Of a DNA stretch of 42,109 bases, positions 3,982-32,133 are shown piece after piece. Numbering within the stretch: the stretch's first letter is position 1; every line of letters begins with the position of its first letter. Made by a program: the position numbers and the translations under genes. The notes under the pieces are model-generated. The model was not told the DNA's origin and did no database searches. It saw only the letters and a program-made list of their open reading frames with translations. The stretch lies in the IMG/VR virus record IMGVR_UViG_3300037474_000032, positions 1 to 42,109 of that record; one strand, 5' to 3'. The DNA comes from a virus.

Positions 3982-4563
3982 ATGGAATTTGAATCGTTTC
4001 AAAAGATTCCCCGTTTGAGCCGGGAGTGCACCATCACCGAGAAGATCGACGGCACCAATGCGCAAATCTTAATTCATGCGCTTGAAGGGTTTCCGGTCGA
4101 AGGCGCCACTTGGCAGGCCGATGGTGTGGCTATCTTTGCAGGCAGTCGCAACCGCTGGATTACGCCAAACGATGACAACTTCGGCTTTGCCAGCTGGGTG
4201 GCAGATCATGGCGAAGAACTCGCTGCCGGTTTGGGTTTTGGCCGCCATTTTGGCGAATGGTGGGGCGCTGGCATAGGGCGCCGATACGGTTTGCAAGAGA
4301 AGCGGTTTAGCCTGTTTAACGTCGGCAAGTGGAACGCCGAGAACAAGCCTGCATGCTGCCATGTCGTGCCGACCCTTTACAACGGCATCTTTGATTCCGG
4401 GATCATCTTTGAAAAATTGGCCGATCTGCGGCTAGACGGAAGCGCGGCCGCGCCCGGATTTATGAATCCTGAGGGAATCATCATTTACCACCACGCCGCC
4501 AATCTCTACTTCAAAAAGACTTTGGACAAGGACGAGGAGTGGAAGGGCAAACAAGCCGCCTAA
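3982..4563 (+). CDS. ATP-dependent RNA-ligase-family nucleotidyltransferase (stand-alone adenylyltransferase domain)
   Basis: 193 aa. All covalent nucleotidyltransferase motifs are visible: I EKIDGTN, III FGEWWG, IV PEGIIIY, V LYFKKT. Confidence 0.75.
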   Translation: MEFESFQKIPRLSRECTITEKIDGTNAQILIHALEGFPVEGATWQADGVAIFAGSRNRWITPNDDNFGFASWVADHGEELAAGLGFGRHFGEWWGAGIGRRYGLQEKRFSLFNVGKWNAENKPACCHVVPTLYNGIFDSGIIFEKLADLRLDGSAAAPGFMNPEGIIIYHHAANLYFKKTLDKDEEWKGKQAA

Positions 4564-4612: not shown

Positions 4613-4801
4613 ATGAAAACGGACAACCCAAAGCGCACATCAATAGAACAATTCAACGGCCCAAAGAAAGCAGACATCACAACAGACGACCTACCAGTAA
4701 GACAATTCAAACCCTGGAAACCCCAACAGCAAACCATCGTCCACAGACCAGGAAGCCTGGACTACAGACAGATAAAGTCAGCTTACTCGGAGAAGCCATG
4801 A
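4613..4801 (+). CDS. Hypothetical protein
   Basis: 62-aa ORF with SD taaggagtg upstream. Its stop overlaps the next ATG. Confidence 0.6.
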   Translation: MKTDNPKRTSIEQFNGPKKADITTDDLPVRQFKPWKPQQQTIVHRPGSLDYRQIKSAYSEKP

Positions 4802-5019
4802 TCGCAATCTCAATTTTTATTCTTCTTTGGCTCGCCAGCGGGGCGCTCAGTTTTATCTACTGGTGGACAAAGGAATTCGACTTCACATCCGAAGAGATTG
4901 CATTTTGCATGTTCATTTCGATTGGCGGCCCGATAACCTTCATTGGGGGATGGATTGTGCATGGAGACGAACTGCTCGATAGTAGGCGTGTACTTTTGCG
5001 TCGCCGGGGTAATAAATGA
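4798..5019 (+). CDS. Small membrane protein (2 predicted TM segments)
   Basis: 73 aa with hydrophobic stretches IAISIFILLWLASGALSFIYWW and FCMFISIGGPITFIGGWIV. ATGA coupling on both sides. Confidence 0.7.
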   Translation: MIAISIFILLWLASGALSFIYWWTKEFDFTSEEIAFCMFISIGGPITFIGGWIVHGDELLDSRRVLLRRRGNK

Positions 5020-5240
5020 GAAGCCAAATAACTGTAAGCAAAGATCACCCGCTATTCCATGCTTTTGGATGGAAAGAATGCGGCACTTACACGGTATATA
5101 ACCAGGACGGCAGCATCACGACTTGGGGATGGAGTAGGGAATACGACGGCGCCGGGGAAATGATATCCAATACTTGTGAGCCGATTTCCACTCTGGTTCC
5201 GCCTCCGCGCAAATCATTCTGGAAAAGGTTGTTTGGATGA
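5016..5240 (+). CDS. Hypothetical protein
   Basis: 74-aa ORF, translationally coupled by ATGA overlaps at both ends. Confidence 0.65.
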   Translation: MRSQITVSKDHPLFHAFGWKECGTYTVYNQDGSITTWGWSREYDGAGEMISNTCEPISTLVPPPRKSFWKRLFG

Positions 5241-5716
5241 GCATCGAACGCTATAGCCGCGCAGTAGAGTCCAAGAACCTCCAATGGCGAGACTACACAG
5301 TCTTGGATATCGACTGGATAGCCGCCGCTGGCGCAGTCTCCATCAAAGACGCTTTACCGGCCCAGGTGGCCCGCTGGCTGGCTGGCGACTACACCCAAGT
5401 ATTCCCCATCATGAGGGCCGTACAGAACCGCTATGGTAAATCCTGGACCCTTAGCGACGCAGCAAGGGACCAAATCCAAGACGCCCTAGACTGGTGGCGG
5501 GACAGGAAATGTAGGAACTGTGAAGGGCGGAGATACATGGCGATTCCCGACACCCCAAATCTTTCAGACACCCCCTGTCCGATCTGCAAAGCAACGGGAC
5601 TCGAACCCCACAGACACGGAACAGAGGCAAAAGCCTACAGCTACACCCTGGCTTTGATGGACGAATCAGCAGCAGCCGTATACAAGATAAGGGAAAAAGC
5701 CCTTGCAAGTGCCTAA
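5237..5716 (+). CDS. Putative Q-like late-gene antiterminator (zinc-finger protein)
   Basis: 159 aa. It is the last early gene before the late region. It carries the paired CxxC motifs CRNCEGRRY...CPICKATG, as seen in Q-family antiterminators. Both position and motif support the call, but it is inference. Confidence 0.45.
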   Translation: MSIERYSRAVESKNLQWRDYTVLDIDWIAAAGAVSIKDALPAQVARWLAGDYTQVFPIMRAVQNRYGKSWTLSDAARDQIQDALDWWRDRKCRNCEGRRYMAIPDTPNLSDTPCPICKATGLEPHRHGTEAKAYSYTLALMDESAAAVYKIREKALASA

Positions 5717-6528
5717 ATGTTGTGGTACAAATAGCATTGTTGTACGTCGCGCAGGACCAGAGGGTACGCCCCGAGGTAGATAATGTGTGGCGAAGCTTTC
5801 TCTAAAGCGTCAAGAAGAAGTGATTTGCGTAGCAGCGGCAGCCAGTTGAAGCAGGCCGGGGAGCGTAAATCGAGAAGTCACTTCTTGTTGGTGATGCGAA
5901 AGCATGCGGACGTACGCCGCGATGCTCAACAGTGGATAGCGCAGTGCAGACACGGCTACCTGAGAGCCGCCAACAGCCAAGAAGCAAGCGGACGGAGTAG
6001 AACCCGAAAGGGAGTCGAAGTGCCTGATCAGCCCGTCCTCTTACTTGTTGGTGATGGATCGACTCAAGCTGGCTTAGTAGGGTGGTGCTGAAAAGCGGGC
6101 GCGATATCGATTTGCTGGTTAGGCTCTGAGCGAGCAACGGACAACCAATCCGGGAGAGCGGAAATAGCGACCCCCAACCAGTCGCCAACAACCAAAAAGT
6201 AAGCGCGTGTGACATAAAACTATCGGGCGGACCCCCTTGAACAGTCCGTAACTCACCCGAGCGCGCTTTCTTGTTGGTGATGCGAAAGCTTCGACCGTGC
6301 GAGCCGGCCTGGGCCAAAAACACGGGTGACACCGGATCGGCCACCAACTTCAATTGCAGTAGCGCCGAGCGAGGGTTTCGGTTGGGCGCCCCAGTAGCCG
6401 CGAGAGCGGATATTACCCAGTCAAAGCGCAAGACTGGTTGAGGCCGTAGTAAATCTACGGAAACCGATGACAGCCGGAAAGACGGCAACCCTATCGCCCC
6501 TGTCAGAAATGACCGGGGCTTTTTTATT
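5717..6528 (+). ncRNA. Candidate large structured non-coding RNA / late leader (three paralogous modules), unclassified
   Basis: No credible coding sequence. The 21-nt sequence TCTTGTTGGTGATGCGAAAGC is identical at 5883-5903 and 6269-6289, and a 13-nt core recurs at 6044-6056. Long-range pairings 5881-5891/5970-5984 and 6040-6051/6185-6203 show two compensatory changes. GNRA-capped hairpins are present. The region ends in terminator 6496-6528. Confidence 0.4.
6496..6528 (+). terminator. Rho-independent terminator at the end of the structured leader
   Basis: gcccctgtc (6496-6504) pairs with gaccggggc (6511-6519) with one mismatch, loop agaaat, followed by TTTTTTATT. Confidence 0.65.
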
Positions 6529-6652
6529 GCCAGCGCGGTCCCAGTGGCAAATAACGGCCGCAGTAGGCGACGAGCAAAGTGCGGACTTTCACTGGAACTC
6601 ACCCAGGTTTCCCCGCAGCGGGCGCTTACAACTTATATTAACGAGGTTTAAC

Positions 6653-6931
6653 GTGTCCTTTCCAAAAGGCGCGCCCCGGCCACCTGGGGCAGGCCGCAAG
6701 AAAGGTTCGGTCAATAAAGTCACTGCCGAACTCAAAGACATGATCCTGACGGCCCTGGATCAAGCCCATGATGGCGGGGGTGTCGAATACCTTAAGGAGC
6801 AGGCTAAAGCCAATCCCACGGCCTTCCTGAGTCTAGTTGGTAAGACCCTCCCTATGACAGTAGGTGGGACGGGCAAAGACGGCAAGATTCTTCACAAGGT
6901 CGAAGTTGTCATCATCGACCCTGCGGCTTGA
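6653..6931 (+). CDS. Small terminase subunit-like protein (DUF5681-like N-terminus)
   Basis: GTG 6653 lies 6 nt after SD gagg, within ORF 6467..6931. The sequence SFPKGAPRPPGAGRKKGSVNK resembles the basic G-R-P-K-G motif of small terminase/DUF5681 proteins. It sits directly upstream of TerL. Confidence 0.6.
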   Translation: MSFPKGAPRPPGAGRKKGSVNKVTAELKDMILTALDQAHDGGGVEYLKEQAKANPTAFLSLVGKTLPMTVGGTGKDGKILHKVEVVIIDPAA

Positions 6932-8240
6932 AGTCCCGCGCAAGTTAAAACCGTTACTAGGCAATAAACGATACAAGGGCGCGTACGGGGGTAGAGGCGG
7001 GGCTAAGTCCCACTTCTTTGCGGAACAGATCGTTCTCAGGTGCTATACCAGCTTTACAAGAGTCGTCTGCATCCGCGAAGTCCAAAACTCGATCAAGGAC
7101 TCAGTCAAACAACTCCTGATCGACAAGATTGCAAAGTTCGGACTGGAAGACAGTTTCCGCGAGCTGGAAGGCGAGATCAGAGGCCCGCACGGCTCAATCA
7201 TTATCTTTCGCGGGATGCAGTCCTATAACGCTGACAACATCAAATCCCTAGAGGGATACGATATAGCCTGGGTAGAAGAAGCCCAGACGCTAAGTCAGAC
7301 CAGCCTGGACCTACTTAGACCCACCTTGAGAAAGGACGGCTCTGAACTCTGGTTTAGCTGGAACCCACGATACAAGACCGACCCGGTAGACAAGTTCTTT
7401 CGGAAAAATCCTCCTGCTGAGGCTGTATCGGTCTTTGTGAACTGGCGGGATAACCCCTGGTTCCCACAGGTCTTGCAAAAGGAAATGGCCCATGACTTCC
7501 AAGTCGATCCTGACAAAGCGGAGCATATTTGGAACGGTGGATACGGGTCAAGCCAAGGCGCCATTCTTGCGCGATGGGTATCTCAGGCAGAGCGAGAGGG
7601 ACGCATACATGCTCAAGTTTTATATGACCCTTTCGGCTCCCCAATCGAAGTCTCTAGCGATTTGGGCTTCAGGGACACGGCGTCCTGGTGGTACTGGCAG
7701 CGAAAAGTAGGCGGCTACACCCTGCTCAAGTATGACGGCGATTCAGGTCTTGACGCTGATGACTGGATACCCCGCATTCAGGCTGAACTACTAGGTTTCA
7801 AGCTAGGGAAGATATGGCTGCCCCACGATGCCAAGGCAAAGACCTTCCAGTCCAAGCATACGAGTATCGAAAAGTTCCTCAAAGCCTTCCCTAGTCAGGT
7901 TGATGTAGTCCCCCAGACAAAGAAGCTTGACCAGATCAGCGCGGCTAGAGAAGTCATCCAACGCTGTGAATTTAGTAAAGATGATTGTGAGGACGGCCTA
8001 GACGGACTCAGGGCCTGGGAATACGAGTGGAACGACGACAACAACGTCTTCTCCAAAGAACCCCTACATAACTGGGCATCGCACCCATCAGACGCATTTG
8101 CGTATGGCTGTCAGGTCATGCAGCTATACGAACCCGTGAAGACAGTAGCCGACCCCATGAGGGGTATCACGGTAGGAAACAACAAGGTCACATTGGACGA
8201 ACTATGGCGCATGACGCCCAAACCATCACACAGGATATGA
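6864..8240 (+). CDS. terL: Terminase large subunit (PBSX-like family)
   Basis: 458 aa. It contains LKPLLGNKRYKGAYGGRGGAKSHFFA (Walker-A-like, typical of PBSX-type TerL) and a C-terminal nuclease region. The start could instead be TTG 6906. Confidence 0.85.
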   Translation: MGRAKTARFFTRSKLSSSTLRLEVPRKLKPLLGNKRYKGAYGGRGGAKSHFFAEQIVLRCYTSFTRVVCIREVQNSIKDSVKQLLIDKIAKFGLEDSFRELEGEIRGPHGSIIIFRGMQSYNADNIKSLEGYDIAWVEEAQTLSQTSLDLLRPTLRKDGSELWFSWNPRYKTDPVDKFFRKNPPAEAVSVFVNWRDNPWFPQVLQKEMAHDFQVDPDKAEHIWNGGYGSSQGAILARWVSQAEREGRIHAQVLYDPFGSPIEVSSDLGFRDTASWWYWQRKVGGYTLLKYDGDSGLDADDWIPRIQAELLGFKLGKIWLPHDAKAKTFQSKHTSIEKFLKAFPSQVDVVPQTKKLDQISAAREVIQRCEFSKDDCEDGLDGLRAWEYEWNDDNNVFSKEPLHNWASHPSDAFAYGCQVMQLYEPVKTVADPMRGITVGNNKVTLDELWRMTPKPSHRI

Positions 8241-31134: not shown

Positions 31135-32133
31135 GTGGCAAGCGTAATCAAGCTCAATGGCAAATGGCGGGCGCTGATCCGGAAAAAAGGCCATAAGCCT
31201 ATCTCTAAGTGGTTTGACCGGAAGATCGATGCGGACGCCTGGGCGCGGGATATTGAAGACCAGATATCCAAGGGCGTACAGAAGCCCCAGAAGGGCTTTA
31301 CGGTCGGCAAGATGATACAAGCCTACCGAAAGCTTCGGGACCATTCTAGGCCGATCCTGGACACTTCCACGGAGCATTACACCCTCAAGCGCATAGAAGA
31401 ATTGTTAGGGGATAAGTCGGTTTACTTAACCGTCGATGAGTTGCTTGATTTTGCTGTCGCGCGAAAGAAGGAGGGCGCCGGTCCTTACACCATCAACTGC
31501 GACATCTCTAAGCTGGGGACCGTCTTTCGATATGCTGGGAATGGTGCGCCTGACGTTGTCGCTATTGCCAGACCAAAGCTGAAATACCTCAGTTTGATTG
31601 GGGATGGTAAACGGCGGGAGAGGCGCCCAGAGCAAAGCGAGCTGGAAGATATCCTGGATGCGCTTGAGCAGCCTTACAAAGACGCCGTCTTGTTTGCAGT
31701 TCTCACAGCGATGAGGCTCGGAGAGATTTGCAGAATCCAGCGAGTTGACCTGAATAGCGAGAAACGTACCGTCCTGATCCGTGACCGTAAACATCCGCGA
31801 AACAAGGCCGGAAACAATGAGGAGGTCCCATTGCTCGGACCCGCCTGGGATATCGCTACCCGTCAGCCGGATGGTGAGCTTATTTTCCCAATCTACCCCG
31901 GTACGCTTTCCAAGAAATTCACAAAGGTCTGTAGCGACCTTGGGATTCCCGACCTTCACTTTCACGATCTGCGACATGAGGGCGTTTCCAGGCTATTTGA
32001 GCAAGGGTTCACAATCGAGCAGGTTGCCTTGGTATCGGGGCATAAGGATTGGAGACACCTTAGGCGCTACACAAACCTAAAGCCTGAATCCCTTCACTCG
32101 CTCTCCCCTCAAGGTACGCGGCCAAAACCTTAG
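31135..32133 (+). CDS. int: Tyrosine integrase
   Basis: 332 aa with a GTG start. The catalytic region reads LTAMRLGEI...HFHDLRHEGVSRL...VSGHKDWRHLRRYTNL (R..HxxR..H..Y). Confidence 0.9.
   Translation: MASVIKLNGKWRALIRKKGHKPISKWFDRKIDADAWARDIEDQISKGVQKPQKGFTVGKMIQAYRKLRDHSRPILDTSTEHYTLKRIEELLGDKSVYLTVDELLDFAVARKKEGAGPYTINCDISKLGTVFRYAGNGAPDVVAIARPKLKYLSLIGDGKRRERRPEQSELEDILDALEQPYKDAVLFAVLTAMRLGEICRIQRVDLNSEKRTVLIRDRKHPRNKAGNNEEVPLLGPAWDIATRQPDGELIFPIYPGTLSKKFTKVCSDLGIPDLHFHDLRHEGVSRLFEQGFTIEQVALVSGHKDWRHLRRYTNLKPESLHSLSPQGTRPKP

Follow-up and report, generated by a model that had tools for sequence, protein, structure and literature searches.

Tandem copies of an uncatalogued three-box module in the candidate late-operon leader of a temperate lambda-like phage

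What fills the ~0.9 kb between a Q-like gene and the gene for the small terminase (terS) in IMG/VR virus record IMGVR_UViG_3300037474_000032? The window analysed here covers positions 1 to 42,109 of that record (42,109 nucleotides, nt), and the gap in question, 5717-6652, is non-coding. We consider it rather probable that this gap is the late-operon leader of a temperate lambda-like phage and that it carries accessory structured RNA modules, our confidence being moderate for the architecture and low for the mode of action. A promoter-proximal, terminator-bounded late leader of the lambda Q type is the part of this that is already known, and the new part is the uncatalogued cargo of tandem modules. 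A first-pass annotation of the same DNA had drawn attention to the gap, and all the sequence features that it listed were found again, displaced by 1 nt at most. L-numbers (L001, L201, L348, etc.) denote related loci or contigs fetched for comparison with the window.

The first question is whether the gap encodes protein. One open reading frame (ORF) lies on each strand (Table 1) and neither gave a match in Pfam and PHROG searches. With the ten structural genes of the window as reference, the mean codon log-odds are -0.07 for the plus-strand ORF and -0.12 for the antisense ORF, while the Q gene, TerS, RNA ligase and structural genes score from +0.07 to +0.26. These negative scores, together with the frame of the repeated motif described below, which in modules A and C differs from that in module B, speak against coding repeats. 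Furthermore, what L201, the closest relative, has in common with the window is confined to the 5' 101 nt, a single set of boxes and the terminator, a pattern unlike the conservation of a protein gene, and neither ORF is conserved there, so that the region is best taken as non-coding, as had been claimed. In annotation, the 266-codon antisense ORF should not be called a gene.

The gene that precedes the gap is, by profile comparison, a remote homologue of lambda Q. Searched alone, its product of 159 amino acids (aa) had no Pfam or PHROG match, and a database search with it returned five homologues only. An exhaustive profile search gathered the family (495 representatives, E <= 0.001), from which an 80-member alignment was taken. 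Compared with PDB, the profile of this alignment matches 7UBM chain Q, which is lambda Q, with E 4.6e-6; the match takes in profile positions 20-137 (118 positions) and both CxxC pairs. A second match is 4MO1, at E 0.019. PHROG 127 is matched by 24 of the 80 members and PHROG 6060 by 13, both of them named 'anti-termination protein Q-like', and the label 'Q-like' given in the first-pass annotation is thus backed by remote homology. A scan with a 6-sequence alignment of the family yielded no contigs beyond those already collected, and an AlphaFold model of the protein (pLDDT 40) was set aside. As the window also holds genes for an integrase (31135-32133), an ERF recombinase and a GH108 endolysin, its gene content identifies the phage as temperate with a lambdoid layout.

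A candidate PR'-like promoter lies over the Q stop codon, with a -35 hexamer TTGCAA (5703-5708), a 17-nt spacer, a TG at 5723-5724 and a -10 hexamer TACAAA (5726-5731), from which transcription would start at about position 5738. Hexamers are found in register after the Q gene at all Q-family loci examined: L201 has the hexamers and spacing of the window, and the end of the Q gene is overlapped by TTGCAA-17-TATAAA in L202, TTGACG-17-TACTAT in L205 and TTGACA-17-TACAAA in L206. Just downstream, the columns CCA..GG....CC.CGAGGT of a 39-nt block (5739-5777) are invariant at seven Q-family loci whose Q proteins are 49-92% identical, and this block is a candidate Q-loading/Q-utilisation or pause region. 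At the other end of the gap, the intrinsic terminator that had been claimed is present and strong (-16.5 kcal/mol and z = -3.07 for 6496-6525); a 30-nt stretch is 100% identical in L201, and cmscan aligns 6496-6528 as a terminator stem. It is the only intrinsic terminator in the gap, which speaks against the multi-terminator antitermination leader proposed in the first-pass annotation. The hairpins that precede it fold together with it at -35.3 kcal/mol (6436-6530, z = -3.35), and a 14-mer, CCGGAAAGACGGC, is common to this pre-terminator region and the L202 leader. Beyond the terminator, the spacer to the first late gene contains a GGTTTCC(C/T)C stretch common to the window (6529-6652), L202 (5057-5180) and L205 (4975-5105).

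The late leader of lambda is roughly 0.2 kb long, and the gap had been described as unusually long for a Q leader. This description does not hold within its own family, as in all five contigs with a Q homologue the distance from the Q gene to the next called gene is 440-700 nt, even where the terminase belongs to another family (Terminase_2 in L202). Moreover, none of 80 loci fetched for their TerL relatives (up to 82% TerL identity) has the window region, and thus the leader tracks the Q gene and not the terminase. The leaders of L202, L203, L204, L206 and L354 contain a tRNA-Met, those of L202 and L203 a tRNA-Thr too, and the leaders read to their end (L202, L203, L206 and L354) finish with RF02278, 'Betaproteobacteria toxic small RNA', and a terminator. 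RF02278 scores 55-56 bits against a gathering score of 50 in the three of these that were scanned (L202, L203 and L206), and expression of this small RNA (sRNA) family has been demonstrated in Burkholderia (PMC4603805). Given these gaps and their contents, a long leader loaded with RNA genes is, as far as the compared loci go, the norm of this Q family and no peculiarity of the window. The slot is the same in the window, running from the conserved block to the terminator with accessory and variable content; unlike its relatives, the window slot has no tRNA and no match to the RF02278 model (CCUCCUCCC hairpins plus terminator), and its modules are not tRNA-like.

Two further observations concern these relatives. 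L202 (4810-5000), L205 (4690-4790), L206 (4720-4910) and L354 (~2040-2230) share an uncatalogued-looking non-coding element of ~90-200 nt, depending on the pair compared, which reads GGGGCTTCTAATTTGGTCGAGGGCAGACCCC.GCAAGCG.CAGAT..CGGC...GGCCCAGCGGCGCCGGA...CGTAACCGGCACC and lies directly 5' of the RF02278 sRNA and 3' of the tRNAs where these are present. It has no Rfam match and may be another uncatalogued RNA. In L206, an IS1595-family transposase gene and four other minus-strand genes (5033-7426) directly follow the leader terminator and separate it from the late genes, an insertion that its sister contig L354 lacks.

What occupies the slot in the window is a module of three boxes in the order CCAAGAAGnAAGCG, CGCUUnCUUGUUGGUGAU and GYCRCCAAC, present in three copies, A, B and C (Table 1). 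The presence of three paralogous modules had been proposed from their repeats, and these are confirmed: identical copies of the 22-mer TTCTTGTTGGTGATGCGAAAGC lie at 5882-5903 and 6268-6289, and a 68% copy at 6042-6063, where the core CTTGTTGGTGATG is also exact (6044-6056). In the whole window the exact 12-mer CTTGTTGGTGAT occurs at these three sites only. A 3' motif, AGCCGCCAACAGCCAAGAAGCAAGCG, at 5965-5990 recurs with 85% identity at 6180-6205, and GAGAGCGGA is repeated at 6154 and 6402. Across copies, the conserved box1 is (G)CGCCAAGAAGUAAGCG, box2 is CGCUUUCUUGUUGGUGAU, within which CUUGUUGGUGAU is invariant, and box3 is GGCCRCCAAC(AA); box1 and box3 are near-duplicates of each other (CGCCAA[G/C]AA). 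The sequence between the boxes is unrelated among copies and variable in length (18-55 nt and 33-125 nt). Downstream of module C, a degenerate fourth box2 looks like the decayed remnant of a further repeat.

A comparison with other phages, of the kind that the first-pass annotation had wanted, shows the same boxes in some of them, with covariation in the hairpin described below. Among the matches listed there are at least six module copies in at least four contigs, namely the window (three), L201, L348 (= L235) and L218. The single copy of L201 is closest to module C. In L348/L235, a promoter called by the scanner (TTGACT-17-TAGAGT) opens a leader of ~560 nt with one module, followed by a CUCCUCCC hairpin and a terminator, and this leader ends just 5' of terS and terL. 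The L218 module is found where a prophage ends, with a partial tRNA on one side and tail-fibre genes on the other. The order of the boxes and the box1:box2 hairpin hold in 6/6 copies, and co-orientation with the flanking operon in 5/6 (not L218). A screen of the 360-odd fetched loci revealed no copies beyond these, and scans with two-box and hairpin patterns through viral contigs, reference genomes and metagenomes gave L218, L235 and L348 as true matches, among the matches listed. The two-box pattern had no true copies in 185,579 reference genomes (596 Gb), only four chance matches in coding regions; isolate phages and plasmids gave chance matches only to the module patterns, and all 120 hits of an exact 14-mer scan of viral contigs (120/120) were also chance matches. 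BLAST of the region against isolate phages and E. coli genomes gave no hit, and BLAST of the box consensus against phages and plasmids only chance-level hits. As the same three boxes occur in three otherwise dissimilar phage contigs and chance matches to the pattern are rare, the recurrence of the module in these sequences is beyond chance.

Two of these contigs show something next to the module. 3' of the L348 module there is a tRNA-like stretch (2038-2105) that reads GGCGTAGCTCAATGAGAG...GCAGGCATCAAATCCTGCCGCCAGTACCA, with a T-arm-like hairpin and an ACCA end, and for which neither ARAGORN nor Rfam made a tRNA call. In L201 (4693-4839), a Shine-Dalgarno AAGGAG 3 nt past box3 is followed by an ATG and a 43-codon ORF (4708-4839), which the gene caller left uncalled and which had no PHROG match; pairing of box3 could possibly gate translation there.

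Is the module an RNA? Box1 is predicted to fold back on box2 in a long hairpin, P1, in which the box CCAAGAAGnAAGCG pairs with CGCUUnCUUGUUGG over 16-19 positions (-25 to -38.5 kcal/mol). It is irregular at position 5, which is G.G or A.G in five copies and C-G in L218, and at position 9, which is U.U or C.A in four copies, A-U in L218 and absent from module A, while its distal stem differs in sequence in every copy and keeps its pairing. Five of the 19 pairs are changed on both sides (11 cells, compared with 4.4 +/- 1.8 after shuffling, 0/500 shuffles reaching 11) and 89% of the cells are paired, against 43-55% with the partner slid by 1-3 columns, all of these counts being inflated to some degree, as they use a core alignment fitted by hand to the hairpin. 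Because the fit was manual, the full modules were also aligned with MAFFT, and from this alignment, left unedited, RNAalifold returned P1 and nothing else. In these alignments P1 is supported by covariation across phages. A second helix, P2, would form between box2 and box3 (GUUGGUG:CRCCAAC); it can pair in 6/6 copies and varies only in having U.G or U-A. Box1 and box3 compete for the same UUGG of box2. With regard to the strand, nine G.U cells are found on the plus strand and a single C.A cell would be G.U on the minus strand, an asymmetry that favours a plus-strand RNA.

These results change the structural picture of the first-pass annotation, which had a compensatory helix formed, in modules A and B, by box2 with a downstream segment. 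Each module does keep at least one helix by compensatory change, but it is P1, and GUUGG:CCAAC shows no compensatory change. In the window array each box1 is directly 3' of the previous box3, and each AAGnAAG box thus lies between two copies of box2; this is why the pairing of box2 with downstream CCAAC..AAGAAG had been seen. That pairing would be an equally possible alternative in the tandem array, but the three single-copy homologues cannot form it, since in them only the upstream partner of box2 exists. The three annotated hairpins are all there (5894-5905, 6003-6012 and 6444-6460). The AGTAG motifs also recur, with mild enrichment (4 observed against 0.9 expected, a count reached by 26 of 1000 shuffles). 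The wording 'highly structured' finds no support in the thermodynamics, which are ordinary: the folding z of the whole region is -1.71 on the plus strand and -1.50 on the minus strand, single modules range from -0.25 to -1.4, and only the last 95-170 nt stand out (z about -3). In the minimum-energy fold the array is closed by a 10-bp perfect long-range complement of 5791-5800 with 6284-6293 (CGAAGCUUUC with GAAAGCUUCG), which is probably incidental because it is built on an AAGCTT palindrome and is not conserved in L201.

Does the leader need the module? L201, whose Q protein is 92% identical, has one module, flanked by a 5' leader of 98% identity and by an identical terminator, and its box1 joins the flank of module A to AAGTAAGCGCG of module C, the junction that recombination between boxes would be expected to leave. 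A second case, L360, was found by looking up contigs that encode exactly the TerS of L348. These two are 100% identical over 206 nt upstream, promoter included, and 185 nt downstream, terminator included, and their TerS proteins are identical, but L348 has one module and L360 none: within L360 240-330, 28 nt replace a 329-nt segment, L357 2493-2822 (= L348 1778-2107), which contains the module and the tRNA-like stretch. Other members of the Q family have no module either. On this evidence the module is optional, with three copies in the window, one in L201 and L348 and none in L360, and since a near-identical phage does without it, it is not obligatory for the control of late genes.

We therefore propose the following, as a reading of the DNA. 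In the absence of Q, polymerase starting near 5738 would stop at the 6496-6525 terminator and release a non-coding RNA of ~790 nt; in its presence the polymerase would continue past the terminator and transcribe terS, terL and the portal gene. The leader would be, in this Q family, a slot for accessory small RNAs, and the slot of the window, which is long because it holds three tandem copies, would be filled by these and the decayed fourth copy of one structured RNA module. Each module would consist of the long irregular P1 hairpin followed directly by P2, which would enclose a variable multi-hairpin insert, and recombination between boxes would change the copy number. Our best guess is that the module is an accessory structured RNA released by leader termination. 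Once released, the modules might serve, in multiple copies, as a decoy or regulator of some partner, from host or phage, by which CUUGUUGGUGAU is read, or they might act through the alternative pairing of box1 and box3. Late transcription does not appear to need them as an obligatory control element. A more specific proposal, which we advance only tentatively, is that the module represents a new class of phage-borne regulatory RNA, in which CUUGUUGGUGAU (12 nt, G/U-rich) is handed between the C/A-rich box1 and box3 and is in this way self-masking, and which, made from a constitutive prophage late leader and amplified in tandem, titrates or mimics a host RNA or RNA-binding protein. Prophage anti-sRNAs and pseudo-antitoxin repeat expansions are models for such titration or mimicry.

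If the reading of accessory RNA in a late leader holds, the principle known from Stx phages, a terminated Q leader as a gene product, would extend to an uncultured phage lineage, and in this lineage the leader would be a slot whose small RNAs are interchangeable, be they tRNAs, the 'toxic small RNA' or the module. It would also provide a concrete candidate RNA motif with defined boxes and one helix supported by covariation, and the natural variants with 0, 1 and 3 copies would be ready-made deletion and dosage experiments.

The modules could instead be a cis-acting switch or processing signal of the late transcript, which we regard as rather unlikely. Box2 would initially be paired with box1 (P1), until box3, the better-matched partner, took it over (P2); this exchange would set pausing, cleavage by RNase III/E/P or the stability of the terS-terL mRNA, and tandem copies would sharpen the response. 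The competition of the near-duplicates box1 and box3 for the UUGG of box2 fits this, as does the retention of the G.G and U.U mismatches of P1 in 4-5 of 6 copies. In three of the four lineages, moreover, the module lies between promoter and terminator, directly upstream of terS, and L001 and L002 have different hairpins with a shared base, as a tandem pair or singly, at the same leader position. Against a switch, L360 keeps the promoter, terminator and TerS of L348 without any module, the copy number goes from 3 to 1 and other Q-family members have no copy, the L218 module is outside any late leader, and box3 has no consistent link with a U-tract or a ribosome-binding site. The hairpins of L001 (4671-4765 and 4767-4844, in tandem) and L002 (4815-4900, single) are long, with the shared base CAAAACGC...GCCGTTTTG and covarying distal arms, in a leader that follows a different small gene and a promoter; the L002 hairpin adjoins a degenerate tRNA (Rfam tRNA, 34.5 bits, 4900-4981). 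The logic of their copy number is the same as that of the window modules.

Less probable still is that the modules are selfish or decaying repeats without present function, derived from a palindromic element or from unequal recombination and tolerated because the leader is free of coding constraint. Their patchy distribution, variable copy number and decayed fourth copy are what such repeats would show, and the element is very rare in public data, with at least four lineages among the matches listed. Nevertheless, the boxes are identical over 12-20 nt in otherwise unlike leaders and the inserts between them are unrelated, just the reverse of the pattern seen in mobile-element copies; in addition, the helix is maintained by compensatory change and no copies were found in the 185,579 reference genomes.

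We find it quite improbable that the boxes are DNA sites, 9-bp CRCCAA[C/G]AA in alternating orientation, bound by the small terminase (pac), a late regulator or a recombinase, with RNA folding as an incidental consequence. Such sites would account for the invariance of the box sequence itself and not just of its pairing, for the location upstream of terS in three lineages, for the alternating orientation of the seven sites in the window and for the mosaic leaders with break points at boxes. They would leave unexplained the distal stem of P1, which covaries with arbitrary sequence as no protein-site repeat would, and the one-sided G.U pairs (9 vs 1). Nor does the module follow the small terminase, and the packaging-site region suggested in the first-pass annotation (pac/cos) is disfavoured for this reason: L001, without a module, has a TerS 60% identical to that of the window, and L201 and L348, each with a module, have TerS proteins that are not detectably similar to it (E 0.05-0.07). 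Nor is there co-occurrence of the module with the Q family, and in L201 it is 1.6 kb from terS, with genes between.

That the whole 0.8 kb is one large structured non-coding RNA of the GOLLD/ROOL/OLE size class, as had also been suggested, is very improbable, its length of ~790 nt, many local hairpins and the 5791-5800:6284-6293 complement being outweighed by the lack of any Rfam match at E <= 10, by the conservation of three short boxes in units that are repeats and not distinct domains, by the limited overlap with L201 and copy numbers of 3, 1 and 0, and by a folding z of -1.7 with a similar value on the opposite strand.

Several points also weigh against our own reading of accessory RNA modules in a late leader. 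The -10 hexamer of the window, TACAAA, is weak and a consensus promoter scanner makes no call there, because the hexamer ends in A; start site, termination and processing, if there is any, are predictions from the DNA. The at least six copies from at least four lineages, among the matches listed, are the whole known sample, and as the L218 module and the tail genes are convergent, it is uncertain whether the module is transcribed there. Besides the manual fit of P1 mentioned above, P2 is known by its conservation and, as it never varies, is unproven as a helix, and the folding energies of the modules are unremarkable. Finally, most of the invariant bases are inside helices, which fits sequence-specific recognition that could be at the DNA level.

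Among known systems, the nearest parallel comes from Stx phages, in which PR' is constitutive and the terminated leader is a functional sRNA, StxS (PMC7547250). As in the lambda PR' leader ('6S') and StxS, the window has a Q-type gene followed by a candidate promoter, a non-coding leader, a terminator and late genes, and the terminated leader, which is itself the RNA product in those phages, would have its equivalent here; unlike them, the window leader is ~790 nt long and has repeated modules, with no sequence similarity to those leaders. In the c4 antisense RNA of P1/P7 (immI leader, Rfam RF01695), a recognition sequence is flanked on both sides by complementary boxes. Box1 and box3 flank box2 likewise, but the window has no RF01695 match and an ORF start near box3 is found in L201 only. 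The put elements of HK022 are cis-acting antiterminator RNAs at early promoters of a phage without a protein antiterminator. Like them, the module has two stem-loops side by side whose stem sequence is conserved, and it is placed in a promoter-proximal leader ahead of a terminator. It differs from them in its company, a Q gene, in being optional and in its distance of 70-500 nt from the predicted start.

A cmscan of the whole window at gathering thresholds reported only the tRNA-Gln at 1407-1479, and none of the covariance models of Rfam GOLLD, ROOL, HEARO, OLE, raiA and group I/II introns had a match in the window. At E <= 10, 5500-6900 gave only weak, terminator-driven Rfam matches (Spot 42, 22.7 bits with a gathering score of 80; NsiR1, 15.7 bits with a gathering score of 39) and none to the modules, and an Rfam search of 13 related loci found nothing matching them. 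The idea of a tRNA-like P2 domain (7-bp helix, 76 nt in module C) was dropped, as there was no tRNA match at E <= 10 and no ARAGORN prediction at 70-90% thresholds coincided with 5887-5974, 6047-6189 or 6273-6348. A CsrA-type GGA sponge was rejected because GGA is unenriched (16 observed, 19.6 expected), and a MITE/REP-type mobile palindrome is disfavoured because interiors are unrelated among the six copies and the 185,579 reference genomes hold no true copies. From the sequence alone, we also set aside an integron attC (GTTRRRY/RYYYAAC is not matched by the cores), an invertible-segment shufflon (the segments measure just 55-130 bp and no recombinase adjoins them), RfaH ops (GGCGGTAG-like GTAG motifs are only weakly enriched), boxA/nut and mimicry of CRISPR repeats.

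Table 1. Coordinates of the features in and around the gap (positions in the window).
Feature	Position	Strand	Basis or detail
Q-type late antiterminator gene, 159 aa, CxxC...CxxC zinc motif	5237..5716	+	family profile
PR'-like late promoter over Q stop codon (candidate)	5703..5731	+	read from sequence
Conserved initial-transcribed block GTCGCGCAGGACCAGAGGGTACGCCCCGAGGT	5739..5777	+	seven-locus comparison
ORF	5783-6091	+	present in ORF listing
ORF, 266 codons, antisense	5802-6602	-	present in ORF listing
Module A	5807..5978	+	box1 5807-5826, box2 5875-5895, box3 5966-5976
Module A P1 hairpin	5810-5891	+	-31.0 kcal/mol
Module B	5975..6193	+	box1 5977-5995, box2 6033-6055, box3 6181-6191
Module B P1 hairpin	5977-6051	+	-25.6 kcal/mol; encloses CCC-GAAA-GGG
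Module C	6192..6350	+	box1 6192-6208, box2 6261-6281, box3 6339-6348
Module C P1 hairpin	6192-6277	+	-28.5 kcal/mol
Degenerate fourth box2 CCGAGCGAGGGTTTCGGTTGGGCG	6365..6388	+	71% identical in register to 6257-6277
Three small hairpins before terminator	6417-6437, 6444-6460, 6473-6486	+	fold; last holds CCGGAAAGACGG
Intrinsic terminator, tR' equivalent	6496..6528	+	stem 6496-6519, U-run (U6) 6520-6525
Small terminase (terS)	6653-6931	+	PHROG 11043
Large terminase (terL), PBSX/Terminase_3 type	6864-8240	+	PHROG 3717, PF04466
Portal gene	starts 8457	+	PHROG 12082

The gap is followed by the terminase and portal genes listed in Table 1. Away from the leader, the early region of the window contains a tRNA-Gln(CTG) gene (1407-1480), present in L201 too, and a gene for an RNA ligase (3982-4563; PF09414, PHROG 548), so this phage bears other RNA-related cargo as well.

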